This document shows, piece by piece, positions 5,048 to 27,899 of a stretch of 35,160 nucleotides of DNA; positions within the stretch are counted from its first letter, which is position 1, and every line of letters begins with the position of its first letter. Source of the DNA: an uncultured Candidatus Saccharibacteria bacterium (GTDB lineage Bacteria; Patescibacteriota; Minisyncoccia; Phycocordibacterales; PALSA-1337); the NCBI GenBank assembly GCA_964593965.1, contig CAZQKU010000001.1, forward strand, positions 1 to 35,160, read 5' to 3'. The translations under genes and the position numbers were made by a program. Below the pieces are notes generated by a model. It had not been told where the DNA came from. It made no database searches and saw only the letters and a program-made list of their open reading frames with translations.

Positions 5048-5066
5048 TTGTGCCCGGGGTGGGACT
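5048..5066 (-). repeat. Orphan copy of the tRNA-Leu(UAA) 3' end (att-like direct repeat)
   Basis: Identical to 12454-12472 (16 nt of the tRNA 3' end plus 3 nt downstream). The sequence diverges immediately beyond it, so no complete tRNA is present here. Confidence 0.6.
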
Positions 5067-5195
5067 TGGTCACGGATAATTTTCTCGCCGTCGCTCGAAA
5101 ATTTCCGCGACCCCGCCTCGCGGTCTCGTCTGTTGACTCGACAACGCTCCGGCTTTCTCGTTCCACACGCGAAGCGCGAGGGCGCTTCGCTCCCA

Positions 5196-5430
5196 GCACA
5201 AACTCACTTTGTTCGTTTGTGCCGATTCCTGAACGAAGTTCGAACCTTTTTCGCCGCGAATCCGGAACAATGAGGTGTCGCTTCGCGACGCTTCCTTAGT
5301 GTGGGGTCGTCCCATTGCGCCTTCGCTCCGCTCGGCGCTGGGAGAAGGGCGGACGGCAGCCGGGGGTGTGGGGGAAGGTCGCCGTCCGCCCTTCCTCTTC
5401 GTTTTCGCGCGCCGCCCTGCAGGTTTTTTC
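5196..5430 (+). repeat. GC-rich hairpin-dense repeat, copy A (inverted relative to copy B)
   Basis: The reverse complement of 10523-10758 aligns over ~215 nt with a handful of substitutions and two 1-nt indels. It contains a perfect 14-bp stem (5344-5357 / 5381-5394). GC-rich structured sequence continues outward across 5067-5195 and as a 9-bp hairpin at 5462-5488. Confidence 0.8.
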
Positions 5431-5553
5431 GGGCGGGGGCGGAACCAATTCAGAAATCCTCGTGGCTCATTTCCACCATATGAGCCACAATAATATTTAG
5501 CGCATGAATTGATACTTTGCATCGCGCGGAGAACCCACGCGAGCGATATGTCC

Positions 5554-6144
5554 TTACTCCACCAATTTCACTAGGTAACGCGTTGTAATCGCGCTTGAGA
5601 TATGCAGAAGTTTTTGGACGTCTTCGTTGGCAAAGATTTTATTTTTTTGTGCGAACAGAATGATCTTGTCGAGCTTTTTCTGCTTGTTGGACTGAATCTT
5701 AGCTTGAGCTTTGATGAGCAAGGCGTGAATGAATCCGGCTTGATATTGTTGCGCCGACGATTGCGCCTGTGGCACTGGCGAAGTCAGTGGCGTCGGCGCG
5801 GACGGCGCAGACTGTGGTTCAGATTGATTTGGAACCGGTTGAACTTCTTCAGAAGCTGGCGGATTATTGTTTACAGGAGTTGGCTGGTCTTCAACCGGCG
5901 TTTCTGGCTCATTTGGAGCAGAAATTGGCTCATCTGGCACCTCGCTTTTTGGCTGATTTACCCCTTGATTTTGATCTTCGACGGAAGTGTTAATAGAAAC
6001 GCTTTTAGGCGATTCTGGGGCCTCTGTGGGCAAATCGGTAGGCGTAGAGCCATCTGACTGGCTAGAAACGTCAGAAATCGGTACTTCATGAGTTTGAGCT
6101 TCTTCTGGAGGCGTAGCTATGTCTTGTGATTGATCATCATCCAT
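5554..6144 (-). CDS. Hypothetical protein: acidic/Pro-rich disordered N-terminus with a C-terminal winged-helix-like domain
   Basis: 196-aa ORF. The low-complexity N-terminal ~130 aa are rich in P/E/Q/S. The C-terminus reads KIILFAQKNKIFANEDVQKLLHISSAITTRYLVKLVE and looks HTH-like. It lies 25 nt downstream of the giant gene on the same strand. Confidence 0.6.
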   Translation of the reverse strand: MDDDQSQDIATPPEEAQTHEVPISDVSSQSDGSTPTDLPTEAPESPKSVSINTSVEDQNQGVNQPKSEVPDEPISAPNEPETPVEDQPTPVNNNPPASEEVQPVPNQSEPQSAPSAPTPLTSPVPQAQSSAQQYQAGFIHALLIKAQAKIQSNKQKKLDKIILFAQKNKIFANEDVQKLLHISSAITTRYLVKLVE

Positions 6145-6168
6145 GAGGAGGAATATTTTACCAGATTT

Positions 6169-9100
6169 TCATTTCATCAGCGCGTTGACCTCATTCATCG
6201 TTGCTACTCCAAAGAATCCAGTCGGGACCGTCAATCCTTGCGGCTCGAGTATCTCTTTCTTGTACGCTTGCTGGAACTTCATTAAAGCGGCTTTCGTTGC
6301 AAGACCGAAATATGTCGTCTCGTGTCCGGGAGAGCCTGCTCCATTCTTGGCGACGATGAAACCTTGAGAATTGAGAAATATCTGCAACTTCTTAACATCG
6401 CTACTGGTCACACCAGATTTTAATGTCCGTAAAAACGACGATCCGGAATTCGACGACGGCGTTTTTACAGAAATAACATTTTGCGTCGGAACATTTTGTG
6501 CTGGAATCGTTATTCCGTATTGATTAGCAACTTGCTGTGCCTGCGTGTAGAAGCCCATCGCCAGAAGATTATTGACTTGGCTTGAGGCACTGCCACCGCT
6601 AGAGCTGTAGCTGGTAGTAACAGCGGGTGGTAGGACTGCGTTTTTGACTGTTACTGTTATTAATGACGATGTAGCGTAATTCCCCGCGTTATCTCGTGCC
6701 ACGGCAACAATGGTATGCAATCCGTCAGAAACTGCTGTTGAATCCCATGTTGTCGTATATGGAGCGACCGTGATTTCTGATCCGATGTTGGTGGTACTAT
6801 CCAACTTGAATTGCACGCCTGCGACAGCTACATCATCGGAAGCTGTCGCGGACAAAGAGACCGCCGAACCGGCAACGGTAGAACCGCCTGAAGGTGATGT
6901 GAGAGCAACCGTCGGAGGTGTGGTATCAGTGGTCGTAAATGGCAGGATTGAGCCCGTGCTCGTTCCGGCCGAGTTCACCGCATATGCGCGGAAGTAGTAG
7001 GTGGTATTGGGTGTGAGGCCTGTAAAACTCTGACTGAATGTCGTTATACCAGTCTGACCGTTCAGGGTTGTAGTCGCAATGACCGTGGCGAGAGTCGGTG
7101 ATGTGCCGTATGCAAATCCAGATTGCGTAGCATCGGCTCCGCCAGTCGAAGTAATCGAAGCGTTCAGAGTTGCAGTCGAAGTCGAGATCGGCGAAGCGGC
7201 GACAGTTGAAATCGACGGTGCCACTATCGGGTCGCCATACATACCGAAGTCAGAAAAGTTAGAAGTACTGCAAGTTACCGTTTTGGCTCCTGTATTCACC
7301 GAGCAACCAGTGAGCGCGGTCCATGAACTGCCATCATATCTGTAGATCTTCAATGAAGACTCCAGAATGCCTGTAATATCACCAGAGACATAGCTCATCG
7401 TCACGGTCAGTGCTTGGCTGAATGTTGGTAGAGTCGTAGTGGCATCGGTCAAAGCTTTCAAATTGAAAATCTTATTGCCCACGAGCGACTTACTTGTCGG
7501 CGCGCCGGCTGAAGCAATGAAAGCTGTCGGGTCAAGACTTTTGATCTGGAAATTGGCGAAAGTGGATGTGCTGGTGAAAGATGTTGGAACAGTTATAGAT
7601 AGAGTATCCAGATTTAATGGTCCACCGGAAGCCGTAGTGAGCATGCTGGATGTCGAAGTAGATACAGCCGCATTGCCGGTACAACCGGTGGTAATGAAAG
7701 TTGAATCAGTAGAGCTGGCCGTACCATTTTTGAGATATACAAGATCGTTTGTGATGCTTAGGCGATTACTACGGACACGATAGTGGTACAAGACACAAGA
7801 TTGCAAGCCAGACACAGTAATCGAGTGACCGGTAATTTTTCGAGTGGTGGAAGAATTATCCTGTTCAGCGGTAGAGGTGGAATAATTGGAGGTGAGATCA
7901 AAATCGACGATGCTGGAAGACGAGGCATTCGATGTCCAACCGATGATGGCAGAAGATGCCGTCGTAGAAGTAGAAATATTACTTATTAAGGTGAGGGGAT
8001 GAATTAAAGCGTCAATTGCAGGCCATATACGATTTGCAATTACCGTTTCTCCAACAGTGTTCTGGTGCGTACCATCAGGATTATAGTAAGTGGTATTAGA
8101 GTTCTGTCCCGCTTGCCCCATAACAGGGTCATTGCCCATGTCTACTAACGCTTGGGCATATGTAGTATAGTTAGCGCGTAACGAAGCATTTGTAGCTTGC
8201 CTAACAACTTCGCTTGGATTCTCGGTATTGGGCAATACGGTAACGGCTATATTCTCCCAACCTACAGCTTGTCGAGCACTATAATAAGTGGGCAAATTAG
8301 TATATGCTGGTTCATTTGTTCCCTCCCATCCAACAAGTATGTTATTGACTAATGTTGAGTCAAAAAGCGGATCAACTTTGGTTGGCGCGTCGACTATCAA
8401 TTGGCTTGTCGTTTTACCAGAGACCGCCTGATTTACATATGGCACCTTAACAGTTTCTAAGCCATCTATGATGTCAGAGAAAGGAATAGCTCCTAACGCG
8501 CCGCCGGCAGAGATGCTATTACCATCGTATACTACTCTGTTCGTAAGTGGTAATGGCCACGTCCATGGAATATTGAACCTTGAAGCAAGATATGCATTTA
8601 CATTGTTAATCTCATTGAAAGAAAGAGCTCTATTATATATATAAACGGCTTGTATATAACCATTAAATAAAAAACTGCCATCTCCTCCTATATTCCAAAC
8701 AGATGTTGTGTCAAAGTTTGGGAGACCCGCACCCTCAGTTGCAAAAGTATTAAATGCAGATGGAGATCCATCAGAAGGAAGATAGCCATTCAGATAAATT
8801 AACTGGGTGCCGCTTGTACTGATGTTTGGATCGGGAGTGAATGAATCCTCATAAACATTTCCGTGTAATAAACTATTTGTGGTCGAAGAAAAATTGTAAT
8901 TGCCGTCGCCATAATTTTTGACCTGTGAACTACTTGTAACAAGCCACCATGCTCGATTTGAAGAAGATCCCTTATGCAACAAATTAGCATATGTAACACC
9001 AGATGAAGTTTGTTTATACACAATAAAGACGGTTGATGAACCAGTGTTGCCAAAATTAAGAACACTGGGATTACCTAAAGTTAGAAGCGTATTGGCACTA

Positions 9101-9384
9101 GCTCCAAATTGTACGCCAGAATATCCGCCGTCTTTATTTAAAGTTAATAACGGCTGGTTAGTAGCATTCGTATTCGTCGCATCATAACCATTCCCCGACT
9201 TATCAGCCCACAAAGCGATCTTATCGCTCTCTAATGTCGCAGGCTGTGTCTTGGCAGTATCCTTGTAGAAAGAATTTGGTTGAGAGGCATCCAACCATAG
9301 TTGAAGACCCGGTATATCGGTTGGAGCGGAAATAGCAAACGCTTTTTGAGCTGACGATCCGAAAAATATAGCAAAAACCGCCAA
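6169..9384 (-). CDS. Giant secreted surface protein: LamG-like, SGNH/GDSL hydrolase, FN3-like repeats, Ig-like domain and a C-terminal peptidoglycan-binding domain
   Basis: 1071 aa. LamG-like segment: LQLWLDAS...NGYIQAVYIYNRALSFNEINNV. SGNH blocks: VVYDGNSISAGG and DGTHQNTVG. FN3 segment: GFAYGTSP...TGLTPNTTYYFRAYAVNSAG. Ig-like segment: TPPTVALTSP...ASDDVAVAGVQFKLD. PG_binding_1-like segment: VKKLQIFLNSQGF...YFGLATKAALMKFQ. The only in-frame start is TTG at 9384, which truncates an in-frame signal-peptide n-region. See the (CT)n finding for the alternative ATG at 9457. Confidence 0.85.
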   Translation of the reverse strand: MAVFAIFFGSSAQKAFAISAPTDIPGLQLWLDASQPNSFYKDTAKTQPATLESDKIALWADKSGNGYDATNTNATNQPLLTLNKDGGYSGVQFGASANTLLTLGNPSVLNFGNTGSSTVFIVYKQTSSGVTYANLLHKGSSSNRAWWLVTSSSQVKNYGDGNYNFSSTTNSLLHGNVYEDSFTPDPNISTSGTQLIYLNGYLPSDGSPSAFNTFATEGAGLPNFDTTSVWNIGGDGSFLFNGYIQAVYIYNRALSFNEINNVNAYLASRFNIPWTWPLPLTNRVVYDGNSISAGGALGAIPFSDIIDGLETVKVPYVNQAVSGKTTSQLIVDAPTKVDPLFDSTLVNNILVGWEGTNEPAYTNLPTYYSARQAVGWENIAVTVLPNTENPSEVVRQATNASLRANYTTYAQALVDMGNDPVMGQAGQNSNTTYYNPDGTHQNTVGETVIANRIWPAIDALIHPLTLISNISTSTTASSAIIGWTSNASSSSIVDFDLTSNYSTSTAEQDNSSTTRKITGHSITVSGLQSCVLYHYRVRSNRLSITNDLVYLKNGTASSTDSTFITTGCTGNAAVSTSTSSMLTTASGGPLNLDTLSITVPTSFTSTSTFANFQIKSLDPTAFIASAGAPTSKSLVGNKIFNLKALTDATTTLPTFSQALTVTMSYVSGDITGILESSLKIYRYDGSSWTALTGCSVNTGAKTVTCSTSNFSDFGMYGDPIVAPSISTVAASPISTSTATLNASITSTGGADATQSGFAYGTSPTLATVIATTTLNGQTGITTFSQSFTGLTPNTTYYFRAYAVNSAGTSTGSILPFTTTDTTPPTVALTSPSGGSTVAGSAVSLSATASDDVAVAGVQFKLDSTTNIGSEITVAPYTTTWDSTAVSDGLHTIVAVARDNAGNYATSSLITVTVKNAVLPPAVTTSYSSSGGSASSQVNNLLAMGFYTQAQQVANQYGITIPAQNVPTQNVISVKTPSSNSGSSFLRTLKSGVTSSDVKKLQIFLNSQGFIVAKNGAGSPGHETTYFGLATKAALMKFQQAYKKEILEPQGLTVPTGFFGVATMNEVNALMK

Positions 9385-9431
9385 AATGACGATGACACAT
9401 TTTGCCTTCCAATTTTTAGAGAGAGCTTCTA

Positions 9432-9446
9432 CTCTCTCTCTCTCTC
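9432..9446. repeat. (CT)7.5 dinucleotide microsatellite in the 5' region of the giant surface-protein gene
   Basis: CTCTCTCTCTCTCTC is read directly at 9432-9446. It lies between an out-of-frame ATG (9457-9455, minus strand) and the open frame of the 1071-aa ORF. Confidence 0.9.
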
Positions 9447-9603
9447 GTTAATCGCATAATTAGTTTTTAATACGGCCACGGTTAATAATTTAGTGGACTT
9501 TTAATGACTGCTCCAAATCGTACTTATATACTCTTGTGAGATTGTGCTAATTATAAACCATCTATGCATTTTATGGAAATCAAAGTATATGCACCGTTTT
9601 TGC

Positions 9604-9633
9604 TTGACTTGCAGTAACCTTTAGGTATATACT
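9604..9633 (+). promoter_or_regulatory. Sigma-70-like promoter with no ORF downstream
   Basis: TTGACT at 9604-9609, then either N16 to TATATA (9626-9631) or N18 to TATACT (9628-9633). About 50 nt further on come two hairpins and a T-run (9648-9689). Confidence 0.4.
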
Positions 9634-9665
9634 CTTACTATCGGATCGGGGTGTCCCCGGTCGGT

Positions 9666-9689
9666 AAAAGGTCCCGCAAGGGACTTTTT
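9666..9689 (-). terminator. Bidirectional hairpin terminator downstream of the DUF3800 gene
   Basis: AAAAGGTCCC-GCAA-GGGACTTTTT sits directly after the stop codon at 9694-9696. A/T runs on both sides allow it to function on either strand. Confidence 0.55.
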
Positions 9690-9693
9690 ACGT

Positions 9694-10476
9694 TTATGGA
9701 AAGACTTTCAATCCGTAGCCGTCCACTTTTCCGTTGCTTCCTTTTCTCAATTTACTCTCTATTATCTGGAACGGTATGTAAGGTTCTTCCGAATTCAAAA
9801 CATGCCGAGCGATCGGATACGCGCACAGGTCGGCGATTTGCAGACCTATATCGTTATCTTTTTTCAATTTCATATTGAATTCGATGATGCGCTGCTTGAA
9901 GCGATCGCTACCGACATGGTATGTCCCCTTATCGATCACGCTGTTGTAGTGCGCGAGCAATTGAGTGTCTTCTTTCTTGCCTCTTTTTTCTATGTTGATC
10001 GACACGGTCGAAGCCGAGGTCTTTTCATCAGTGCAGAAGACCAATCGTTCGAGAATATATGAAAGACAGATCGTGTAAGGATTCTGAGCGATCTTTCCGT
10101 ATTTCTCGATATGCTTCTTCTTGTCGATCGCGACGGCTATGACCGTAAACCGTGCATCTTTTATTATCGCGTTGAGCTTTTCATAAAATTTTTTCTTCAG
10201 GTCGAGGTCGAATAGTATCTGGAATGCGCCGTCACATTTCCTGATATCTCTAGAATGCAGGATGACTTCGGTAGTCTTGAAAAACTCCATCTTGAGATCA
10301 TTGATCCTGCTGACCATGTCGTTATACTCAGTATCCTCAAAAAGACAGCCTGCAAGCAGAAATATCGGAAAGTTTTCATCGACAAAACCCAGACCGTGAT
10401 CACCGGTTTCATCAAGAAAGAAATTATACTTTTTCGGTTGAGTGGGCATACGATGCGTGGTTATTCTTTCTGTCAT
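9694..10476 (-). CDS. DUF3800 domain protein
   Basis: 260 aa. The N-terminal YNFFLDETGDHG motif is characteristic of DUF3800. TATGAT lies 5 nt upstream of the ATG. Confidence 0.75.
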   Translation of the reverse strand: MTERITTHRMPTQPKKYNFFLDETGDHGLGFVDENFPIFLLAGCLFEDTEYNDMVSRINDLKMEFFKTTEVILHSRDIRKCDGAFQILFDLDLKKKFYEKLNAIIKDARFTVIAVAIDKKKHIEKYGKIAQNPYTICLSYILERLVFCTDEKTSASTVSINIEKRGKKEDTQLLAHYNSVIDKGTYHVGSDRFKQRIIEFNMKLKKDNDIGLQIADLCAYPIARHVLNSEEPYIPFQIIESKLRKGSNGKVDGYGLKVFP

Positions 10477-10522
10477 ATTTTATCATAAAATTTCAAAAAG
10501 AAATCTCTCCTCTTATTATCCT

Positions 10523-10758
10523 GAAAAAACCTGCAGGGCGTCGCGCGAAAACGAAGAGGAAGGGCGGACGGCGACCTCCCCCACACCCCCGGCCGCCGTC
10601 CGCCCTTCACGACGCGCCGAGCGGAGCGAAGGCGCAATGGGACGACCCCACACAAGGAAGCGTCGCGAAGCGACACCTCATTGTTCCAGATTCGCGGCGA
10701 AAAAGGTTCGAACTTCGTTCAGGAATCGGCACAAACTCACTTCGTTCGTTTTTTGTGC
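10523..10758 (-). repeat. GC-rich hairpin-dense repeat, copy B
   Basis: Inverted copy of 5196-5430. The same 14-bp stem is present (10559-10572 / 10595-10608). The differences between copies fall mostly in loops and spacers. Confidence 0.8.
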
Positions 10759-10845
10759 GCCTTGTGGGACGATATTGGAACGGAAATAACCAAATAAAAA
10801 GTACAACCTTCCAGATATTGAGGGGGTTGATCTTCCTTTTATCCG

Positions 10846-11022
10846 TTAATTGCTAGCCTCTTTTTTCATGGTAACAACCAAATCCTTGACCATTCCGTTA
10901 ATTTTTCCGAGATACATTTCCATCTCCTGCATAATCTTAAGCTTTTCAGCTGGTGAAGTACTTGCTTTCTTCAATTTCTCAATACTCTCTTTTATTTGTT
11001 CTTTTGGTATTTTATTTATCAT
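10846..11022 (-). CDS. Small 58-aa helical protein (below the ORF-track cutoff)
   Basis: Manual translation: MINKIPKEQIKESIEKLKKASTSPAEKLKIMQEMEMYLGKINGMVKDLVVTMKKEASN. It starts 20 nt downstream of the 124-aa gene on the same strand. No SD sequence is present. Confidence 0.35.
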   Translation of the reverse strand: MINKIPKEQIKESIEKLKKASTSPAEKLKIMQEMEMYLGKINGMVKDLVVTMKKEASN

Positions 11023-11041
11023 ATTTTTATAATTTATTTAA

Positions 11042-11416
11042 TTACCCAAGAATATCAATTCTATCTGCCACAAAAGCCGCAACTTTTGCAAGAGAAGTAA
11101 CGGCCGTCATTCCGATGGTAACGACGAGTGCTTCTTTGGTATTTATCCCCTCCATATATGCATCTGCCGCGACGAGACCACCCATAAGAGCGGGGAACGA
11201 CCAAAGAATTGCATCCTCAGTAATAAACGTTTTTACACCTTCGATCCCCTTTTTTACCGCCGCACTCCATCCATTCTTTGGCTCTTTAGTAGCCAATTGA
11301 TCAAATTGTTCAAGATTCGTTTGTAACTCAGCCGCAGTAGTATCAAGTTTTTCTTGTTGAGCACCAATCTCTCCCTCAATTCCTGAATTTTCAGGGTTAG
11401 ATTCTATATTAGACAT
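11042..11416 (-). CDS. Hypothetical protein (124 aa) with a hydrophobic C-terminal half
   Basis: ORF with a coiled/acidic N-terminus and the hydrophobic segments ILWSFPALMGGLVAADAY and LVVTIGMTAVTSLAKVAAFV. TAATAT lies 7 nt before the ATG. Confidence 0.6.
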   Translation of the reverse strand: MSNIESNPENSGIEGEIGAQQEKLDTTAAELQTNLEQFDQLATKEPKNGWSAAVKKGIEGVKTFITEDAILWSFPALMGGLVAADAYMEGINTKEALVVTIGMTAVTSLAKVAAFVADRIDILG

Positions 11417-11499
11417 ATTTTTTATATTACATTAATAATAAAACGTAGACACATATTATTATAACGTTTTTTCGTTAAGTAGCTATGTTTTTAGTACCC

Positions 11500-11528
11500 T
11501 TGACATAATAACCTATTTGGTATACACT
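11500..11528 (+). promoter_or_regulatory. Sigma-70-like promoter for the 129-aa membrane protein gene
   Basis: TTGACA at 11500-11505, then N15 to TGgTATACA (extended -10, 11518-11526). The downstream leader ends in a GGAGG SD at 11593-11597. Confidence 0.5.
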
Positions 11529-11603
11529 TATGGCAGATAAGGTCTGGTTTTACGTAGCCTTAGTTCCTGAACAATCAAACATTCAACAATTGGAGGAATT
11601 CAT

Positions 11604-11993
11604 ATGTTTATCAAACGCCTTGTAAATTCCGTAATCACAATTCCTGTTCTGTTCGTCATCTCCGCAGTCTTGATCGTCGCTTCTGCTTACCTCGGACACT
11701 ACCTTGACTATTTCGAAGCGACGCACCAGCCGATAGGTGTCGGAGCGGTTGCGTTTCTCATGGGAGCCGCGATGCTGGACTGTCTGATGTTTCTCGGGGC
11801 TGTCTTCATCAGTACGGGTGCTGTCGCCGTTCTCATCACAGGCCACGGCCTATTGTGGCGGCGAGTGGACGAGCACGACTTTCTGCAAAATCCCGACGGA
11901 TCGGTTTTCCGAAGATTCGAGAAGGCAGACCTCATTTGGAGATGGAGTCCAATCTTCAACGGGCGGAAATTGATGGGATACAGCGATTTTTGA
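11604..11993 (+). CDS. Small membrane protein (129 aa)
   Basis: Two or three hydrophobic helices (ITIPVLFVISAVLIVASAYL, GVGAVAFLMGAAMLDCLMFLGAVFI). A GGAGG SD sits 6-7 nt before the ATG, which is one of the few SD-led genes in this window. Confidence 0.65.
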   Translation: MFIKRLVNSVITIPVLFVISAVLIVASAYLGHYLDYFEATHQPIGVGAVAFLMGAAMLDCLMFLGAVFISTGAVAVLITGHGLLWRRVDEHDFLQNPDGSVFRRFEKADLIWRWSPIFNGRKLMGYSDF

Positions 11994-12011
11994 TGAGGAT
12001 TGCGATAGACG

Positions 12012-12050
12012 AAATCCACTTTCAGCGATGAGGGTGGATTTTTATTTTTT
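12012..12050 (+). terminator. Rho-independent terminator
   Basis: AAATCCAC (12012-12019) pairs with GTGGATTT (12034-12041) and is followed by TTTATTTTTT. Confidence 0.45.
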
Positions 12051-12456
12051 AAACATGGACGTACTGTTCGATACAGAGTTAATTTGCTTCTAAAATAGAG
12101 TGTCTTTGACTAAGCCGTACTGCTGCTCTATAGCAGGGTTATAAAAATTGCTTCTAATTTCTTCTAACAAAGATAGTCAGAAATTGGCTTCATAGTAAGT
12201 ACTTCGAGATTCACCAACAGGATGTAAGAGCTTCATATCAACCGTTGTTACTTTCGAACAGATTAAAAAAGTCTTTCTAGACGGCAGTACAGCCTCCGCA
12301 CGGTATCTCATCGTCGATGATGAATAAAAGCGCAGAATGTTGGAAAAGATACTTTCGAACGCTTCCATTACCAACAAAAATATAGCTCAACACAGCTTTA
12401 AAAGTCCATATTCAATGCTCGCGAAAGTGTCGAAAAATGCTGATTTTTCTACTTTG

Positions 12457-12541
12457 TGCCCGGGGTGGGACTCGAACCCACATGATCTTTCGATCGACAA
12501 ATTTTAAGTCTGTTGCGTCTAGCCGATTTCGCCACCCGGGC
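12457..12541 (-). tRNA. tRNA-Leu (anticodon UAA), class II with a long variable arm
   Basis: Folded by hand. Acceptor stem GCCCGGG/CCCGGGC plus discriminator A. Anticodon loop CTTAAAA. Variable arm GATC-GAAA-GATC. T arm GTGGG-TTCGAGT-CCCAC. No encoded CCA. Confidence 0.9.
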
Positions 12542-19095: not shown

Positions 19096-19776
19096 ATGAT
19101 GACAATGCAAACAAAAGAAAACAGTACTTTTCTCCGCGGCGTTACCCTGACTCTCGGTACGATCGGTGCAGTGGTGGTGTTTGTCGCATTGCTCTATGCT
19201 ACGATTCCCAATGTTCGGTATGTCCAAGCGGCAACCGCAAGTTCAAGTGTGGTTGTCACCTTGAATGTCACTGCCGGCATTTCCATAACTGCTCCAGGAA
19301 ATGTCACCATGAGTACGCCGATCACTATATCCCAAGCTAGTTCCATTGGTACCACGACATGGACAGTTATCACAAACGATTCGAACGGTTATACTCTTGC
19401 CGTCAATGCTACATCTTCGCCCGCTATGCAATATGGCGCGACAAGCACCATAGCTGACTATCAAACTGGTGCTCCCAATACCTGGGCTGTGGCCGCCTCC
19501 GCCGCCAATTTCGGATATTCGGCTTTTGGTTCTGATGTAGCTTCGACAACATGGGGTACCGATACACTCTGTGGCACTAGCCTCGGTACACCCTCGATGA
19601 ATTTGAAGTACAAAGGTTTTACCACTTCTCCATTTACCATCGCTTCCCGTACGTCTACCACCACTCCTACTGGAATCAGCACTACTGTGTGCTATGCCGC
19701 TCAGCAGGGCACGAGCTTCTTTATTCCTTCAGGGACGTACATTGCTACAATAGTGGCCACAGCTACCAGTCTGTAA
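19096..19776 (+). CDS. Secreted beta-rich protein, WxL-domain-like (divergent; lacks the Trp residues)
   Basis: 226 aa with a signal anchor. TTWTVITNDSNGYTLAVNATSSPAM resembles the V.V.D.RG..GW.L motif of WxL proteins. The C-terminal PSGTYIATIVATATSL resembles the G.Y.A.LTWTL motif. It is a paralogue of the product of 20822-21562. Confidence 0.7.
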   Translation: MMTMQTKENSTFLRGVTLTLGTIGAVVVFVALLYATIPNVRYVQAATASSSVVVTLNVTAGISITAPGNVTMSTPITISQASSIGTTTWTVITNDSNGYTLAVNATSSPAMQYGATSTIADYQTGAPNTWAVAASAANFGYSAFGSDVASTTWGTDTLCGTSLGTPSMNLKYKGFTTSPFTIASRTSTTTPTGISTTVCYAAQQGTSFFIPSGTYIATIVATATSL

Positions 19777-19785
19777 TATATAATC

Positions 19786-20808
19786 ATGAAAAACAAAAAA
19801 AGTATCATTATTTACTTGATGATCCTTGGTGGTACTGTACTTTCTATACCTGTGTATCATGTGTTTGCTCAGACCGTTTCATCGTCGACTGTGACAGTAT
19901 CTACCACACCGTCAAGTCGACCACAAATCACCACTATTTCGGTAGATGTTAAAAATGATTTTATCGTCGAGCCCGGTAAAATAGAGGTTGATGTCAATCC
20001 TGGTGATGTCATAAACAAAGACATCTCCATCACAAGCAGGATAAGTAAATCAACAAAGTTTCTTATTACCACCGAAGACTTCCAGGGATCACAGAGCGAA
20101 GATCAGCCGGTTGTCCTTCTTGGCGACAAATCAAGCCCGTGGTCTTTTAAGGATAATTTAGTGCCTGCAGTGACGAACTTCACCTTGAATCTTGGTGACC
20201 GTATTGATTTACCTGTTACCATCAATGTACCAAAGAATGCCTCTCCCGGAGGTTATCTTGCCGCCGTCATCGTATCGAATGAACCGCAGGTCAATACTGA
20301 TACCAGTTCTGGAGCGACGGGTGCGCGTATCATATCTCGTGTTGCCGTACTCTTTTTTATTCGCGTGTCCGGTCAAGCGTCATCGAGCGGCTATACCGAG
20401 GATTTTCGCATTGCCAACCAACAAGCTATTTATTCACAGACGCCGGATACGTTCAAAATACTTTTCAATGATACAGGAAACATGTATCTCGTTCCGTATG
20501 GAAATATAAACATTACCAACATGGCAGGAAGCAATGTTGGCACCATTCCCGTGAATGCTTTCTTTGCTCTGCCGGATTCTTTGCGATATCTGGATGTCGC
20601 GTGGAATGATAATGGAGCTTTCCGGATCGGCAGATATACCGCAACACTGGAACTCAATCGAGGCTATGGTGGTATCGTCGATACGAAAGTCATTACATTC
20701 TGGATACTTCCATGGAAAATTGTCGGCCCGATACTGGCGGGTATTATTATTCTGGTAGTCCTTGTTTACTTCATATTCTCCAGATTTGAATTCAGACGCA
20801 GAAAATAA
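19786..20808 (+). CDS. DUF916/DUF3324-like (CscA-like) cell-surface protein with a C-terminal TM anchor
   Basis: 340 aa. After a signal peptide come two beta-sandwich-like halves: FIVEPGKIEVDVNPGDVINKDISITS...PGGYLAAVIV and FKILFNDTGNMYLVPYGNINITN...RIGRYTATLEL. A C-terminal TM segment (ILAGIIILVVLVYFIF) follows. The family call rests on architecture and motif resemblance. Confidence 0.75.
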   Translation: MKNKKSIIIYLMILGGTVLSIPVYHVFAQTVSSSTVTVSTTPSSRPQITTISVDVKNDFIVEPGKIEVDVNPGDVINKDISITSRISKSTKFLITTEDFQGSQSEDQPVVLLGDKSSPWSFKDNLVPAVTNFTLNLGDRIDLPVTINVPKNASPGGYLAAVIVSNEPQVNTDTSSGATGARIISRVAVLFFIRVSGQASSSGYTEDFRIANQQAIYSQTPDTFKILFNDTGNMYLVPYGNINITNMAGSNVGTIPVNAFFALPDSLRYLDVAWNDNGAFRIGRYTATLELNRGYGGIVDTKVITFWILPWKIVGPILAGIIILVVLVYFIFSRFEFRRRK

Positions 20809-20821
20809 AGCTAAAAAATAT

Positions 20822-21562
20822 ATGCGCAAAGGGATATTGCTAATTATAAGCATATTGTATATTGTGCCGCTTGCTTCGAGGGCGGCGATGTCGAGTACGG
20901 ATTACAAAATAGGCATTGATTCCGTCAATATGGGAGGGGATTATTCGACGAGTACGTCATATTCTATACAGGATACCGCCGGTGACGTCGCCACGGGTAA
21001 TTCCACCAGTACCAATTACGCTATGAATGCCGGCTACCAGCAAATGTACACGTCGTACATCTCCATAAGTTCATTTTCGACGAACACACTGCCGTCTATG
21101 AGTGGTTTTACCGGCGGTATCGCTACAGGTACCATATCAACCTTGGTCGTGACGGACAATCCGGCAGGTTATTCACTCTCCGTTCAGGCCTCGTCCTCTC
21201 CGGCCCTGACCGATCTGAATGGAGCATCCTTCGCTGACTATGATCCTTCAGGTGGAGCGCCGGATTTTTCTTTTACCATACCAACATCGGCATCGGCTTT
21301 CGGTTTTTCCGTTGTCAGTCCCGATGTTGTCAGCCGATATGACAATAACAATTCTGCATGTAATACCGGTTCAATCAATACCGCCTTTACCTGTTGGGAC
21401 GGTTTCTCCACATCACAAAAAATAATTGCTCAATCATCCTTTTCAAACCAGCCGAATGGTGCCACGACTACCCTCGATTTGGAAGCGGAAATCGGCTCCA
21501 CTCAACTCCAAGACAGTGGAGCATATTCGGCTTCACTCATCTTGACGGCTGTTACGTTATAG
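20822..21562 (+). CDS. Secreted WxL-domain-like protein, second paralogue
   Basis: I chose the ATG at 20822 (MRKGILLIISILYIVPLASRAA signal peptide) rather than the ORF-track start at 20762, which overlaps the upstream gene. TLVVTDNPAGYSLSVQASSSPAL and the C-terminal GAYSASLILTAVTL parallel the 226-aa protein. Confidence 0.7.
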   Translation: MRKGILLIISILYIVPLASRAAMSSTDYKIGIDSVNMGGDYSTSTSYSIQDTAGDVATGNSTSTNYAMNAGYQQMYTSYISISSFSTNTLPSMSGFTGGIATGTISTLVVTDNPAGYSLSVQASSSPALTDLNGASFADYDPSGGAPDFSFTIPTSASAFGFSVVSPDVVSRYDNNNSACNTGSINTAFTCWDGFSTSQKIIAQSSFSNQPNGATTTLDLEAEIGSTQLQDSGAYSASLILTAVTL

Positions 21563-21584
21563 ATAAGTACTCTATAATAGTGGT

Positions 21585-23459
21585 ATGAAAAAGAGAGGTA
21601 TTAATAAGATCTTTATGTGCGGATGTATCTTTTCAGCCGCACTGTTTTTTTCTTATTTCTTATCTTATGTCCTGCCGGACTGTTATCTTACGTATGCCGA
21701 TACACCAGGTAACGCCTCTGTCGTACAACTGATAGTAGTGAGCTCTCAAGCGGTTACTACTGCGGCGCCTGCCGGTGGTGTATATAATGCCGCAGTCGCT
21801 GTTTCATTGACCTGCGTCGATACGGGCGGTGTTGGTTGTGGATCTACATATTACACTACCGACGGCAGTACCCCGACAGCTTCTTCCAGTATATATTTGG
21901 GTCCGATCACCATCTCTGCCAATACCACATTGCGATATTTTTCAACGAATGTAGATGGAGTTTATGGTCTGGTTGGTTCTCAAATATATATCGTTGATAC
22001 TATTCCTCCTGTAACGACGGCACATCCGCCGGGAGGAATCTATAGCACTGCACAATCAGTGACACTCTCATGTACCGACGACAATTCTGGTTGCGATGAG
22101 ACATATTACACCACAGACGGGACTATCCCGACTGCCAGTTCCACCCAATATTCGGTGACAAATCCGATTTTTATCACGTCGATGACCGTTCTCAGATTCT
22201 TCTCCACAGATATTGCAGGGAACAGTGAATCACCTCAGATACAAACATATGTCATCAGTGCATCGACATCTTCACCCCCCGCCGCTCCAAGCACTTCATC
22301 CTCCGGAGGGGGATTTTATCCCGGTAATCAGACATTTATACTCGAGAATCTTGCTGTTCAAACGGCATCGACAAGCATAGTTGTTACGTGGTACACACAT
22401 GAACCGTCTGTCTCTGTTATGTCATGGAATGTGGATGGAATCCTCGGTTCCTCCGGATCTGTGTCGGAGATAAGTTATATCGAGAAACATGTCATATCCG
22501 TCAATAATTTGCAACCGGACGAAGAATATGATGTGACTCTCGAGGCTGTATCGGTGGGTGGATCAGTACTGCATGATTCGTTTTTTGTCCGCACATTACC
22601 GGTATCTTACCCCCCGCCTAATATCACCGATTTTTCTGGGACGTCCTCATTCGGAGGAAATGTCATTCTGACATGGAAAAATCCGTCCATTGCTGATCTC
22701 GATTCTATACTGATTACTCGCGGCACTCGTTTCTTCCCGAGAGACCCAACGGAGGGATATATCGTGTATCAAGGAAAAGGGGAGACGGTGCTTGATCTCA
22801 ATACCACACCGGACAATGAATATTATTACAGTGCTTTCACGGAAAATAGCTCAAAAATATTTTCTTCGGGAGTCGGTATACAATTTTTCCTCGGTCTTTC
22901 AACGTCTTCGATACCAGAGAGTGGAACGTCGCTTTTCGGTGGTACAGTTTCATCTCTTCCTATATCGAGTATCAACGGAATTATTTTTCTTAACAACAAC
23001 ATCGTTCTCACACCGGTGATAACGGAATCTTCGTCGAGCCCATTCATTACTGTGGGTATCAATCCCGATCTGTCACTCTCCGTCATTATTCCCGCATCTA
23101 TCATCCCGCACGATACTGAAGAAATCATCATGAAAGTCTCCGATAAGAACAGCAATGGAGGTAATTTATTTTTCCTCTTTACGAAGATGGATGATGGCTC
23201 ATATCAAACGACGGTACCTGCATATTTCGATTATGAAAGTGCCACGAGTCCATTCATTCTCAGTTTCCTCAGTGTGGGATATGAGGTCAGAGTACATGGA
23301 GTATTTAGTATAGGCACGACAAATACATCACCCCAATCGGCCACGACAACCCACGGAAACGATAATTATTTTCTATTGTATCTCATGATAATTCTTCTGC
23401 TTATCTTATTGATATTCTTTATGACCTTTAAGATATATTCCTCGAAAAAGAATAAGTAA
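21585..23459 (+). CDS. Large TM-anchored surface protein with two chitobiase/hexosaminidase-C-type (Fn3-associated) repeats and FN3-like domains
   Basis: 624 aa. Two repeats are seen: YYTTDGSTPTASSSIYLGPITISANTTLRYFSTN and YYTTDGTIPTASSTQYSVTNPIFITSMTVLRFFSTDIAGN. FN3-like segments follow. A C-terminal TM helix reads LLYLMIILLLILLIFFMTF. TATAAT at 21573-21578 lies 6 nt before the ATG. Confidence 0.8.
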   Translation: MKKRGINKIFMCGCIFSAALFFSYFLSYVLPDCYLTYADTPGNASVVQLIVVSSQAVTTAAPAGGVYNAAVAVSLTCVDTGGVGCGSTYYTTDGSTPTASSSIYLGPITISANTTLRYFSTNVDGVYGLVGSQIYIVDTIPPVTTAHPPGGIYSTAQSVTLSCTDDNSGCDETYYTTDGTIPTASSTQYSVTNPIFITSMTVLRFFSTDIAGNSESPQIQTYVISASTSSPPAAPSTSSSGGGFYPGNQTFILENLAVQTASTSIVVTWYTHEPSVSVMSWNVDGILGSSGSVSEISYIEKHVISVNNLQPDEEYDVTLEAVSVGGSVLHDSFFVRTLPVSYPPPNITDFSGTSSFGGNVILTWKNPSIADLDSILITRGTRFFPRDPTEGYIVYQGKGETVLDLNTTPDNEYYYSAFTENSSKIFSSGVGIQFFLGLSTSSIPESGTSLFGGTVSSLPISSINGIIFLNNNIVLTPVITESSSSPFITVGINPDLSLSVIIPASIIPHDTEEIIMKVSDKNSNGGNLFFLFTKMDDGSYQTTVPAYFDYESATSPFILSFLSVGYEVRVHGVFSIGTTNTSPQSATTTHGNDNYFLLYLMIILLLILLIFFMTFKIYSSKKNK

Positions 23460-23488
23460 AAATAAATAGAAATTCTAAGAAGACAGCC

Positions 23489-23531
23489 TGTGGATAACAT
23501 CTGGATAACCTATGGATAACGTCTTAATAAC
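23489..23531. promoter_or_regulatory. Four 11-bp-phased TGGATAAC (DnaA-box-like) iterons
   Basis: TGTGGATAA at 23489, TCTGGATAA at 23500, TATGGATAA at 23511 and TCTTAATAA at 23522. The first is a perfect reverse-complement DnaA box (TTATCCACA). Confidence 0.45.
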
Positions 23532-23644
23532 CCATCAAAAAAGGTGTAGAACCTGTTTATAATCGGTATCAAGAAATCGTCTTTTTTTGCTAAAAAAGTT
23601 ATACACAGCAACGTTTTTTTACTAAAGACGGGGTCTTTTTTACT

Positions 23645-23653
23645 TGGTATAAT
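23645..23653 (+). promoter_or_regulatory. Extended -10 promoter (TGgTATAAT) for the HTH-TM gene
   Basis: A perfect TGnTATAAT at 23645-23653, about 70 nt upstream of the GTG start. A perfect 9-bp palindrome (23685-23705) lies in the predicted leader. Confidence 0.5.
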
Positions 23654-23723
23654 TAACGGCAGGCCAATTTAACGCCTAAAATAAAATCTCGAGTTACTCG
23701 AGATTCCTAAAATAGCTCTCAAC

Positions 23724-24122
23724 GTGGCCATATTTAAGGATTATATATCATTGAAGGAAGCAGGACGCATTTCCGGCTATCATCCGGACTATATTGGTGC
23801 GCTTATTCGGTCAAATAAGGTAAAAGGCAAGAAAATAGGTAAGACATGGATGGTCAGTGAAAGTGACGTCAGAACTCATTTTTCCCGAAAGCATTATGCG
23901 CCGATTTCCAGAGGATTTTCCTCCAAAAAGAAACTCTTTTTAGTTCTTTTTATCGTCGTCATGGTAATTGTTATAACTGTCATCGGCATATTTTCATCGT
24001 ATGGCTTTTCTATAAATCCTTCCGATACGGGAATTTCCGCAAAGGCTTCTCCTCAACAGTCTTTGACAGAAACGGTCGAACCACAAAGTACGGATGCGGA
24101 GGTCATGCAAGCCAGTCAATAA
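23724..24122 (+). CDS. Small HTH (MerR/excisionase-like) protein with a single TM helix
   Basis: 132 aa with a GTG start. The HTH reads ISLKEAGRISGYHPDYIGALIRSNKVKGKKIGKTWMVSESDV and the TM helix reads LFLVLFIVVMVIVITVIGIF. Its stop codon is 3 nt before the start of the giant gene. Confidence 0.7.
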   Translation: MAIFKDYISLKEAGRISGYHPDYIGALIRSNKVKGKKIGKTWMVSESDVRTHFSRKHYAPISRGFSSKKKLFLVLFIVVMVIVITVIGIFSSYGFSINPSDTGISAKASPQQSLTETVEPQSTDAEVMQASQ

Positions 24123-24125
24123 CTC

Positions 24126-27100
24126 ATGAAGAATATATATCAAATTCTTCTCATACTCTTCGTCATCACGCTCTCCACCGTTTTTTGTGCCGAAATTTCC
24201 ACCGCTTCCGCGTCGACCAATTTCAATCAAGAAATAAATTATCAAGGACGACTGACGACGCCTCTCGGTGTGGCTGTGGCAAACGGCAGTTATGATGTTC
24301 GTTTCAAGCTCTACACCGTTCCCACCGGCGGTACGCCGATCTGGTCGGAAACGGATTGTTATGCGGCAGTCGGCAGTACGACCAATTGTAATGGTACTGG
24401 TCCCGATAATCGCGCTAGCATGAACAGTGGACTGTTCAGCATTATGCTCGGAAATACGACGCCGTTTACCGGAGTTAATTTCAATCAGACTCTGTATCTG
24501 TCGGTTGAGATCGGCGGAATATCAAGCACGTCTCCGTCATGGGATGGTGAAATGAGTCCGCGCAAACCTCTCGGCGTGGTCCCGGCGGCAATGACTGCCG
24601 CCAGTCTAAATGGTATAAGTGATACTCAATTTTTTCGGAATGATATCACCAACAGCACGTCCTCAAGTAGCGCCTTTTTGAACGTTACCCAGACGGGTAC
24701 GGGCCCCGTCGCTACATTTACAGGTGCGACCACAACGGATATATTTTCCATCTTGTCTAGCGGTAATGTCGGCATCGGCACTACTACTCCCGGTTCAGCT
24801 CTTACTGTCGTCGGTGATACCTTCATCACTGGTAATGCCACCGCTACCAACCTTACTGCCACCGGGACGTTAAACATTTCCGGCTCTACTACCCTCGCCT
24901 CATCATTGAACGGCCTCCTTTTTTCTACCAACGGTCTCGTCTCATCTCTGGCCACTTCATCTATCGCCGTACTAAACGGTCTTACCACTGCCACGAGCCT
25001 TTCTTCCGTCGGTATCCTTACCTCTGGCTCTATCGCCTCTGGCTTCGGTAACATCAACATCGGTACCAATATCTTCACCGGTAATGGATCAGGCTTGACC
25101 AATATCTCCACTTCATCGCTTGTCGGAGTGCTTGCCGTGGCAAACGGCGGTACGGGTCTCTCATCCGTTTCCGCATCGTCATTTTTCTTGACCGATTCTT
25201 CCGGCAATCCGTACACCGGTACGACAACACCAGCCTTCACTCTCGGTGGTACCGTGATGGGGAACAATCAGAATATCACCGGTCTCAGCCTCCTCTCTTC
25301 CACCGGTGGAACATTTACGAATACCACTGCAACCAATGCCACGACAACCAAGTTTGCTGTTATTGGTACCGGAACATCAACCTTCAGTGGCGGTATCATC
25401 GCTACCTGCTTTGCTACGACGACGGGTGGGCAATGTATTACGGGTGGTAGCAGTGGTGGTGTCTCACTTTCCACCACCAACACATGGACCGCTCTCCAAA
25501 CCTTCGGTAACAACATTTCTTTTGGTGGAGCAAGCACATCCATCGCAAGTCTCATATCAGATCAATTCTTGAAGTATAACGGTACAAACTGGATCAATGC
25601 CGCCATTGCTACCTCTGATGTCTCCGGTCTCGGTTCTCTAGCTACCTTAAGCACTGTCAACAATGCTAACTGGTCGGGTACGCCGCTTGCCGTAGGGAAT
25701 GGAGGTACAGGACTCACTTCCGCTTCCACCTCCTCTTTCTTTCTGACCAATGCTTCCGGCAATCCGTACACCGGTACGACAACACCAGCCTTCACTCTCG
25801 GTGGTACCGTGATGGGGAACAATCAGAATATCACCGGTCTCAGCCTCCTCTCTTCCACCGGTGGAACATTTACCAATGCCACAGCCACAAACATTGTTGC
25901 AACAAACGCTTCAACGACGAATGCTACGACGACCAATCTCGCTGTTACCGGCACTGGCACTACAACATTCGGCGGCGGTATCATCGCCACCTGCTTTGCT
26001 ACGACGACGGGGGGAAAGTGCATTACTAGCAGTAGCGGAACCAGTGGCGGAAACGGTACAGTCACCAGTGTCGGCATAACCGTACCAACAGGATTATCAG
26101 TATCGGGTGTACCGATAACAACAGCAGGAACAGCAACGATTACCCTCGCCGGTGGATATGTTATACCCCTGATCGCCTCTACCACTCAATGGGCTTCAGC
26201 ATACGCTTCCACATCAGCACTCAATGCCACAGGTCCTATAACATATAACAAATCAACAGGGACGATTGCATGTGCATCATGCATCACATCAAATCTCATA
26301 TCTTCCGTCTCAAACAGCGACGGTACACTGACTGTCAGTCCAACTACAGGTGCAGTAGTTGCCTCTCTCAATCTCGGCAATGCCAATACGTGGACAGGCA
26401 CGCAACAGTTCAATGGGGGAATAAATTATCCAAATGGAAATACGATGGTGGATTCGTCGAGCAATCTTAATTACCCAGATGGGTCTGGTATGACCGATGG
26501 AACCGGTTTGTATTATGACGATAATTCATCGTATGGATCAAATGAAGGTCTTACTGACAATAGTGGTGATTTGTATTTGAGCGAAATGGGGGGCAGTTTG
26601 ATTGATACGCAGGGTGATTCAGGTGCAAATAATCAATGTTTGAAAGCAATAAATGGCGGAACATGGGGAACTTGTGCGGCTCCGTCATCCGAGAAGTATA
26701 AGAACAACATTCAAAATCTTTCCGCCACGAGTTCTCTCAATATAGTGATGGCTCTGCAACCCGTGTCATTTTATTACAAAAATGACATAAACGGCATCGA
26801 CAACAAGACTGGAGGATACCAGCCGCTTGACCCAACCGAGCAAGGTCAGGAAGTCGGTCTTATCGCCGAGCAGGTCTTGGGAGTAGATCCCGATCTTGTC
26901 AATTTCACGACTTCCACGACTACATTCGAGGGTATAACATATCCGCCCGGCACTCCTGATTCCGTCAGGTATGGAAATGCCGTGGCACAGCTCATTGGCG
27001 CGATTCAAGCTCAACAAAGCCAGATCGATATTGCAACTTCAAGTATTTCTACTCTGGCTTCTACATCCGTCAATCAGAATATATCTCTCTCGTCATTATC

Positions 27101-27899
27101 GGCCCAATTCAGTGCACTTTCCTCGGCGATGGCTTCGACGACTCTGACTCTATCGGTATTGACTTCCACTATCGCTTCCATCGCTTCTACTACTTCTACA
27201 TCTACTATTGTCGCTACTCTTTCTTCATCAACATCATTTATTCAGACGATTGCCAATGCCGTCATCGCTATCCTTCAATCGTCCGGTCACGTCATCCAGT
27301 CGGCGGGGAACTGGACGGTCGGTCAGATCAGCGGAACTTTGGCAATGTTCAATCGAGTACAGACACAAACAGCCGCAGTGACAAATGGTATCGAAATGAC
27401 AGATTTTTCCACAGGCCAGATATGGTGTTTGCGGATAAGCAATGGAAACTGGGACAAGACAAATGGTCAATGTTCGGTACAAACAAGCATAACCACTTCG
27501 ACGACTACCGTTATCACCACAGAAGATATAACCAATTCCAGCTTGAATAGTCCGATTGTTTCCGTACCCGTTATTTCATCCGGTTCAAGCACCAATTCAT
27601 CTGCCGATGCAGTCATATCAGCGTCAACTACCGTTGATACTACTGATACTACATCAATAATTTCTGCAACGACAACTGCAGTAGGCACAGTAGGTACAAC
27701 CACCGATTCACAGACGACTTCCACTCCACCTCCAACCCCTGCTTCTACTACACCGACAAGTATAACGGGTGATGATATCACGGCTCCAGCAAGCGTCACT
27801 GATACTGCAAGTACGAGTGTTAATACTCTTATTGATGTATCTGCCACGGATGCCACTACTGTTGTCACTCCGGCTGTTACGTCTGATCCGGGACAATAA
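24126..27899 (+). CDS. Giant tail-fibre-like surface protein with an internal peptidase S74 (intramolecular chaperone) domain
   Basis: 1257 aa. A signal peptide is followed by INYQGRLT...GSYDVRFKLY...IWSE and by Gly/Thr/Ser-rich beta-repeat modules. The S74-like block SSEKYKNNIQNL...LQPVSFYYKND...EVGLIAEQVLGVDPDLV lies at roughly nt 26685-27010. About 300 further aa follow it, including a Ser/Thr-rich tail. Confidence 0.85.
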   Translation: MKNIYQILLILFVITLSTVFCAEISTASASTNFNQEINYQGRLTTPLGVAVANGSYDVRFKLYTVPTGGTPIWSETDCYAAVGSTTNCNGTGPDNRASMNSGLFSIMLGNTTPFTGVNFNQTLYLSVEIGGISSTSPSWDGEMSPRKPLGVVPAAMTAASLNGISDTQFFRNDITNSTSSSSAFLNVTQTGTGPVATFTGATTTDIFSILSSGNVGIGTTTPGSALTVVGDTFITGNATATNLTATGTLNISGSTTLASSLNGLLFSTNGLVSSLATSSIAVLNGLTTATSLSSVGILTSGSIASGFGNINIGTNIFTGNGSGLTNISTSSLVGVLAVANGGTGLSSVSASSFFLTDSSGNPYTGTTTPAFTLGGTVMGNNQNITGLSLLSSTGGTFTNTTATNATTTKFAVIGTGTSTFSGGIIATCFATTTGGQCITGGSSGGVSLSTTNTWTALQTFGNNISFGGASTSIASLISDQFLKYNGTNWINAAIATSDVSGLGSLATLSTVNNANWSGTPLAVGNGGTGLTSASTSSFFLTNASGNPYTGTTTPAFTLGGTVMGNNQNITGLSLLSSTGGTFTNATATNIVATNASTTNATTTNLAVTGTGTTTFGGGIIATCFATTTGGKCITSSSGTSGGNGTVTSVGITVPTGLSVSGVPITTAGTATITLAGGYVIPLIASTTQWASAYASTSALNATGPITYNKSTGTIACASCITSNLISSVSNSDGTLTVSPTTGAVVASLNLGNANTWTGTQQFNGGINYPNGNTMVDSSSNLNYPDGSGMTDGTGLYYDDNSSYGSNEGLTDNSGDLYLSEMGGSLIDTQGDSGANNQCLKAINGGTWGTCAAPSSEKYKNNIQNLSATSSLNIVMALQPVSFYYKNDINGIDNKTGGYQPLDPTEQGQEVGLIAEQVLGVDPDLVNFTTSTTTFEGITYPPGTPDSVRYGNAVAQLIGAIQAQQSQIDIATSSISTLASTSVNQNISLSSLSAQFSALSSAMASTTLTLSVLTSTIASIASTTSTSTIVATLSSSTSFIQTIANAVIAILQSSGHVIQSAGNWTVGQISGTLAMFNRVQTQTAAVTNGIEMTDFSTGQIWCLRISNGNWDKTNGQCSVQTSITTSTTTVITTEDITNSSLNSPIVSVPVISSGSSTNSSADAVISASTTVDTTDTTSIISATTTAVGTVGTTTDSQTTSTPPPTPASTTPTSITGDDITAPASVTDTASTSVNTLIDVSATDATTVVTPAVTSDPGQ
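25198..25873 (+). repeat. In-gene 555-bp-period direct duplication with a 121-nt perfect core
   Basis: 25198-25318 is identical to 25753-25873. The flanking ~150 nt on each side are similar but diverged. At protein level GNPYTGTTTPAFTLGGTVMGNNQNITGLSLLSSTGGTFTN occurs twice. Confidence 0.9.

Follow-up and report, generated by a model that had tools for sequence, protein, structure and literature searches.

In a 35,160-nucleotide (nt) stretch of DNA from an uncultured Candidatus Saccharibacteria bacterium (contig CAZQKU010000001.1, positions 1 to 35,160; hereafter the window), a perfect GA dinucleotide tract lies between the likely ATG start codon of a gene for a 1071-residue surface protein and the body of its open reading frame (ORF), at a length that puts the two out of frame. 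We conclude that the functional gene starts upstream of this tract and that the sequenced state is frameshifted. The arrangement suggests a simple-sequence contingency locus of the translational slipped-strand type that has been seen only in its OFF phase, a reading to which we assign a probability of roughly 0.5; it supposes that GA units are in fact gained and lost often enough to be useful and that the cell takes advantage of this. Our working hypothesis is thus a candidate switch caught OFF.

The locus had been described in a sequence-only reading, and direct reading of the minus strand together with rebuilt tracts showed that its coordinates, translations and frame arithmetic were all correct. 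On the minus strand, the ATG at 9457-9455 is followed by CGATTAAC and then by the tract, a 15-nt (GA)7G at 9446-9432 that appears as (CT)7.5 on the plus strand at 9432-9446. The tract starts 11 bases past the ATG and falls within the part that encodes the n-region of the signal peptide; 3' of it come TAGAAG, then GCTCTCTCT at 9426-9418 and a TAA at 9418-9416. As assembled, the ATG frame reads MRLTRERESRSSL and stops at this TAA after 13 codons. Just past a TAA at 9450-9448, the large ORF has its frame open from 9447 onwards, and its translation there is RERERVEALSKNWKAKCVIVILAVFAIFFGSSAQKAFA followed by ISAP. Because the TAA at 9448..9450 closes the main frame, no start is possible further up as assembled, and the first ATG, GTG or TTG in the frame is TTG 9384, which opens the 1071-residue ORF (6169..9384, minus strand). 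The restriction of this ORF to TTG 9384 among canonical starts, as claimed earlier, is therefore accurate. The features of the locus, all on the minus strand, are as follows.

9550..9579: candidate promoter, TTTCCA, 18 nt, TATAAT, with 10/12 consensus matches (a consensus match only)
9477..9479: GTG, possible second, weaker start; in frame at n = 6, 9 and 12; context score 5.67
9455..9457: ATG, likely true start; out of frame as assembled, in frame at n = 5, 8 and 11; context score 5.11
9448..9450: TAA closing the main frame upstream, by direct reading
9432..9446: (GA)7G, proposed slippage site; in frame it codes for Arg-Glu repeats of the n-region
9429..9431: TAG that ends the ATG frame right 3' of the tract at n = 6 or 9, from computed frames
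9418..9439: 9-bp hairpin with an AGAA loop, in which GCTCTCTCT (9426-9418) pairs with the last four GA units and a T
9416..9418: TAA ending the 13-codon ATG frame at n = 7, by direct reading
9385..9447: open stretch of 21 codons with no start, coding for the n-region that the TTG product lacks (SKNWKAK) and for the initial half of the h-region (CVIVIL)
9382..9384: TTG, the only canonical in-frame start as assembled and the choice of the gene callers; context score -0.92; product MAVFAIFFGSSAQKAFA
9334..9384: remainder of the signal peptide, to a predicted cleavage between AFA and IS (-3/-1 Ala rule, by eye)
6169..9333: mature surface protein, with concanavalin-A/LamG-like, SGNH/GDSL-like esterase, fibronectin-III/immunoglobulin (Ig)-like and C-terminal peptidoglycan-binding parts

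From the candidate promoter, transcription would be expected to begin near 9543, which would give a leader of about 85 nt.

We rebuilt the locus in silico with 3-12 GA units (n) and computed the frames for each length. With 5, 8 or 11 units, ATG 9457 is in frame with the large ORF, which agrees with the earlier statement that adding one unit or removing two connects them; n = 8 gives exactly the N terminus that had been proposed. With 6, 9 or 12 units, GTG 9479 is in frame with the ORF and no stop intervenes, the product beginning MAVLKTNYAINERERVEALSKNWKAK.... One unit fewer than assembled (n = 6) is thus a dead end for the ATG only, as GTG 9479 then enters the frame, a phase absent from the sequence-only reading. 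With 4, 7 or 10 units, TTG is the sole start and nothing lies upstream. Since only these lengths have no upstream start, the assembled n = 7 is the phase that offers no start before the signal peptide.

Three lines of evidence place the functional start upstream of the tract: the ATG and its AT-rich context, the n-region and h-region of the in-frame product and the alignment with a homologue. We built a position weight matrix of start contexts from 24 trusted genes of the window, every one of which (24/24) begins at an ATG after an AT-rich stretch and has no Shine-Dalgarno motif. ATG 9457 scores 5.11, within the top 2.1% of 1250 ATGs in the window, and GTG 9479 scores 5.67; TTG 9384 scores -0.92, in the top 16% on the same ATG scale. 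The only two other ORFs headed by TTG (20762 and 31369) hold plausible internal ATG starts: the ORF opening at 20762 probably begins about 20 codons in, as MRKGILL..., and for the ClpB-type gene the JGI call uses the internal ATG 31390 (MPPFKNF..., 942 residues). These internal ATGs support near-exclusive use of ATG in this genome. We also considered the GGAAGG at 9410-9405 as a Shine-Dalgarno motif for an in-frame start and rejected it: a single ATG follows it, at 9400, and this ATG is not in the frame of the ORF.

The signal peptide gives the same answer. The TTG product has a 12-residue uncharged run and no charged n-region, and the n- and h-region are found in the 21 upstream codons that have no start codon, both as had been reported from the sequence. 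The in-frame product has an n-region with a net charge of +4, a 17-residue uncharged run with a mean hydropathy of 2.6 and an AFA motif before the Ile of the predicted cleavage site; its uncharged run is comparable to those of the other secreted proteins of the window (16-24 residues). By these crude measures it has the make-up of a Sec (type I) signal peptide. In addition, the BLASTP alignment to the best homologue, P0001, begins at IVIL, upstream of the TTG codon, and the h-regions of the two proteins line up at equal spacing from a conserved GLxLWLDAS motif.

Calling the product a giant surface protein is a fair description, given its signal peptide, wall-binding domain architecture and 1071 residues. 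Pfam found two fibronectin-III-type regions (Pur_ac_phosph_N and fn3), Big_7 and a C-terminal PG_binding_1, with weak Laminin_G_3 and Lipase_GDSL signals in the N-terminal half. P0001, 29% identical over 483 residues, carries PF13472 and PF01471, and the two proteins have in common the order signal peptide, LamG-like domain, SGNH esterase, further parts and peptidoglycan-binding domain. From this common order we predict a secreted, wall-associated lectin/esterase-like protein. The homologues returned by the protein search are LamG/GDSL proteins from uncultured bacteria and phages. A surface-exposed product is likewise suggested by the combination of signal peptide, Ig-like, fn3 and PG_binding_1 domains, LamG/SGNH homologues and the location of the gene on a putative island, described below.

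The tract is more than a chance feature. First-order Markov simulations of the 35-kb window (1000 in all) gave dinucleotide runs of up to 13 nt and in no case (0/1000) of 15 nt; in 93% of them the longest run measured 8-10 nt. Related Patescibacteria loci totalling 84 kb have a maximum of 10 nt. Within approximately 52 kb of this genome, (GA)7G is the sole dinucleotide run of at least 6 units, and the only other long simple repeat is a run of 11 guanines (G11) at 30132-30142. The tract also has some of the properties that mark contingency loci: it is a perfect repeat of about 6-7 or more dinucleotide units, the length of its unit is not divisible by 3, and it sits between a credible start and the body of an ORF, where unit changes switch the frame.

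On this basis we propose the following mechanism. The gene, which would encode a secreted peptidoglycan-binding lectin/esterase-like surface protein, would normally start at ATG 9457, and slipped-strand mispairing in replication would add or remove GA units. At n = 5, 8 or 11, the ATG would be joined to a complete Sec signal peptide of 40-44 residues and the protein would be exported (ON). At n = 6 or 9, GTG 9479 alone would be in frame, possibly as a weak ON state. At n = 7, the length sequenced, ribosomes that initiate at the ATG would stop after 13 codons, leaving a poor TTG with a truncated signal peptide (OFF). The tract pairs with the CTCTCTCT block just downstream of it to form the 9-bp hairpin. 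The minimum-free-energy RNA structure of the 106 nt from 9370 to 9475 (z-score -2.69) includes this hairpin, which folds as DNA at -7.3 kcal/mol (z-score -2.57). We infer a function for this hairpin: pairing of the CTCTCTCT block with the tract may stabilise slipped intermediates. Neither the locus nor the inverted repeat that flanks it matched any known leader or regulatory RNA in Rfam, whether gathering scores or permissive thresholds were applied.

What the sequence-only reading had called a classic slipped-strand switch holds for the layout, namely the frames, the start quality and the signal peptide; phase variation is a candidate property, as the sequences compared showed no polymorphism in tract length. 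Likewise, its placing of the tract in an OFF or weak TTG state agrees with all sequences at hand, which have a single length and a single state (n = 7, out of frame), whereas switching itself is hypothetical. Several observations weigh against a switching tract. The same DNA is found in JGI metagenome 3300041809, ENA assembly ERZ27250145 (MEGAHIT; L018) and Logan assembly SRR6946416 (L022), and all carry an identical (GA)7G. L018 and L022 run through the locus and are 100% identical to the window; because they show no difference at all over 1.6-7.5 kb, they probably derive from the same reads and provide no independent tract length. The three assemblies are probably all re-assemblies of one read set, and their agreement argues against an assembler artefact and is uninformative on other populations. 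In the 90% protein cluster, all three members are 1071 residues long, including one from another contig, a separate 26,883-bp JGI contig; this protein, P0029, is known from its protein sequence only and differs by A215E. The A215E population was also called from the TTG, consistent with its being in the same phase.

Nor did searches return a second state. The exact ON proteins predicted for n = 5, 8 and 11 are absent from approximately 15 billion sequences, and no orthologue, with or without the tract, was found in the protein, metagenome or genome collections searched: the best protein was 29% identical, the metagenome scan gave one distant match and the genome scan gave none. A comparison of tracts among orthologues, which had been suggested earlier as a check, was run and found no orthologues; it comprises the three assemblies and the A215E variant, which show n = 7 or, for A215E (by protein), the 1071-residue call only. 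Candidatus Taylorbacteria genome L003 has no homologue of the big gene within 10 kb downstream of IF-2, and a pattern scan with a variable tract gave no match among viral contigs. At 7.5 units, the tract is at the short end for fast slippage, and the scoring of the signal peptide is crude. Another 17 kb of this genome contained no more long repeats, and thus nothing indicates that loci of this type are spread across the genome as a set.

The same observations bear on other explanations of the out-of-frame ATG. A one-off inactivating slippage from the ATG 9457 start, which would make this a young pseudogene or a dispensable island gene in which reversible switching is not selected, would account for every available sequence being in one out-of-frame phase, for the position of the gene on an accessory island absent from the closest genome and for the lack of other 5' repeats in 52 kb. 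We nevertheless consider it unlikely. Both variants, which are one residue apart, keep the entire 3.2-kb ORF past the frameshift, with no second lesion in 1071 codons; a perfect tract of 15 nt would not be expected in the absence of expansion or selection; and one unit either way restores a start, which would make reversion far more frequent than ordinary mutation. Rather improbable, in our view, is a model in which translation really starts at TTG 9384, or at a nearby non-canonical codon such as ATC 9393 or ATT 9387, and the tract is part of a leader whose 13-codon upstream ORF and hairpin regulate translation with no genetic switch involved. The gene callers chose this TTG in all assemblies, all observed populations are in this state, the GGAAGG motif lies at 9410-9405 and the hairpin overlaps the end of the upstream ORF. 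However, this genome shows no use of Shine-Dalgarno motifs and almost no non-ATG starts, the context of the TTG is unremarkable (-0.92, top 16% of ATG contexts) and its leader matches no Rfam family. Moreover, the TTG product would have no n-region and about half an h-region, and the 21 upstream codons supply exactly the missing part and align with the signal peptide of the homologue.

An error of sequencing or assembly is also to be weighed, since the earlier reading had noted that a wrong consensus length would reduce its observation to an artefact: the true tract would have 8 (or 5) units and the ATG would simply be in frame. The identical assemblies probably stem from one read set, repeats are error-prone and the JGI assembly broke at G11. 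Yet three different assemblers agree on (GA)7G, each with a contig that runs straight through the tract, and the separate JGI contig with one residue different has the same 1071-residue call. Short-read errors at 15-nt dinucleotide runs are uncommon, and we regard such an error as very unlikely. Least probable of all would be recoding, either by a programmed +1 ribosomal frameshift at CUC-UAA (9421-9416) or by slippage of RNA polymerase on the GA run. A +1 shift anywhere in 9447-9418 would yield a complete signal peptide, and the stop of the ATG frame lies just past a purine-rich run in a loosely prfB-like manner. After a +1 slip, however, the tRNA that decodes CUC would face UCU with a mismatch in the middle position, and we rejected a prfB-type programmed frameshift because of this poor re-pairing. 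AGA is not an especially rare codon here (40/312 Arg codons), and, to our knowledge, transcriptional slippage has been documented for long homopolymers and not for GA dinucleotides.

The gene lies inside a segment of approximately 7.4 kb (5067-12453) between tRNA-Leu(taa) (12456-12541) and a 19-nt direct copy at 5048-5066; the direct repeat, TTGTGCCCGGGGTGGGACT at 5048-5066 and 12454-12472, is the 3' end of the tRNA gene. The closest genome is L003, to whose IF-2 the short, 514-residue IF-2 of the window is 73% identical, which places the organism in the Patescibacteria; L003 retains IF-2, rbfA, tRNA-Cys and tRNA-Leu and is without the genes of the segment. The segment therefore looks like the footprint of an integrated island, with no recognisable integrase. 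A tRNA-Leu-linked island with a surface protein is typical ground for variable surface genes.

Inside the island, a 234-bp inverted repeat (5200-5433 and 10520-10751, 92-95% matched) flanks three genes: a DUF3800 gene, the big gene and a gene for a 196-residue protein. The inverted repeat has 61.5% GC as compared with 46.6% for the window, contains an internal 18-bp hairpin and was found in only two copies; the outermost 19 nt of the arm are flipped relative to the remainder. A 150-residue ORF over one arm (5070-5522) looks like a spurious Arg/Pro-rich translation. Within the big gene, the ENA MEGAHIT assembly has a break, one contig ending at window position 8772 and the next starting at 8722, with a 49-nt gap (8723-8771), and the Logan contig ends at 8962. 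At the edge of the window, positions 1-109 have a second, 96%-identical copy in the JGI contig, located 416 nt upstream (L025 7640-7748).

The other long repeat, G11 (30132-30142, context 30120-30151), lies between TTGTGA and TGcTATCAT, within the 20-nt spacer that separates them, and a secreted 303-residue protein with no assigned function (30221-31132) is encoded 79 nt downstream of the run. It may be a second, promoter-type repeat switch or merely a run that is hard to sequence. The JGI assembly breaks here, with one contig ending at window position 30141 and the next beginning at 30158. In another sample (L028), the poly-G locus is preceded by unrelated sequence, which rules out a comparison of its tract. 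The 303-residue protein (30259-31132) has a longer, 93%-identical variant elsewhere, of 415 residues in JGI 3300017988, and a partial gene call in ENA contig L029 aligns like this variant. The 415-residue variant has a wholly different upstream region, yet the adjacent ClpB-type gene (31390-34218) is 100% identical. The difference amounts to strain-level replacement and length variation of a surface gene. Compared with L003, the conserved neighbouring genes for an aminotransferase, a trypsin-like protease and the ClpB-type ATPase are spread apart by blocks of secreted- and surface-protein genes (19096-27899 and 28911-31132), which include a 1257-residue Peptidase_S74 protein, a 624-residue CHB_HEX_C/fn3 protein and a RhuM/Fic gene. 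These regions form a hotspot for accessory surface genes.

Taken together, these observations allow a wider proposal, which we offer tentatively and hold to be less likely than not: a presumably cell-attached environmental member of the Patescibacteria, Taylorbacteria-like, would vary its surface by contingency loci, with a three-phase GA switch (ATG, GTG or no start) for the export of a wall-bound lectin-esterase encoded on the island and a G tract in the promoter spacer of another secreted protein. If this were true, repeat-driven phase variation, known almost only from host-adapted pathogens, would be extended to the candidate phyla radiation. Switching of the tract, if real, would be early evidence that the surface proteins of ultra-small uncultured Patescibacteria are varied by the cheap mutational trick of pathogens, and possible drivers would be a change of host, evasion of phages or economy on a protein of 1071 residues. 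If the frameshift is fixed, the gene would be an ordinary young pseudogene on an accessory island. The case also bears on annotation: the gene callers gave a truncated TTG start without a usable signal peptide, and 5' repeat frameshifts can thus hide secreted proteins in metagenome-assembled genomes.

Among known systems, the locus most resembles Helicobacter pylori oipA (hopH), sabA and babA. In oipA, ON/OFF switching occurs by slipped-strand mispairing at a CT dinucleotide repeat in the 5' part of the gene, where the signal peptide is encoded (PMC10564699). In both organisms, the signal-peptide part of a surface-protein gene contains a CT/GA run a few codons past the start; gain or loss of units changes the frame and leads to early stops, and OFF alleles retain an intact downstream ORF (PMC10564699). 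The H. pylori proteins, however, are Gram-negative outer-membrane proteins, with no sequence or fold relation to the LamG/SGNH/Ig/peptidoglycan-binding wall protein described here. Membership in the H. pylori Hop family was rejected, as Pfam returned only Big_7, fn3, Pur_ac_phosph_N and PG_binding_1 and the homologues are LamG/GDSL proteins. Since the proteins are unrelated, the locus is oipA-like in mechanism class and not in family. H. pylori is a pathogen known from hundreds of strains with many tract lengths and both states, whereas here one length and one state represent an environmental member of the Patescibacteria.

The genomes of Haemophilus, Neisseria, Campylobacter and Mycoplasma carry many contingency loci, and our locus is like them in having a perfect short non-triplet repeat at the 5' end of a surface gene in an accessory region, and in the presence of a second repeat (G11) in a promoter-like spacer. 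It differs from them in that the genome sampled here has two long repeats in 52 kb and shows candidate switching only. Our search of the literature on phase variation in Patescibacteria and Saccharibacteria found nothing relevant, and the only case of repeat variation that it returned for the candidate phyla radiation is a Gracilibacteria (BD1-5) genome with a hypervariable repeat gene for an extracellular protein, for which slipped-strand mispairing was discussed (PMC6851277). Both are bacteria of the candidate phyla radiation with a repeat-bearing extracellular protein. The Gracilibacteria repeat, however, is an array of 9-mers (PTD) in frame with the gene, and it changes the protein sequence, whereas the GA tract at the start of our gene would shift the frame and turn the whole protein ON or OFF.

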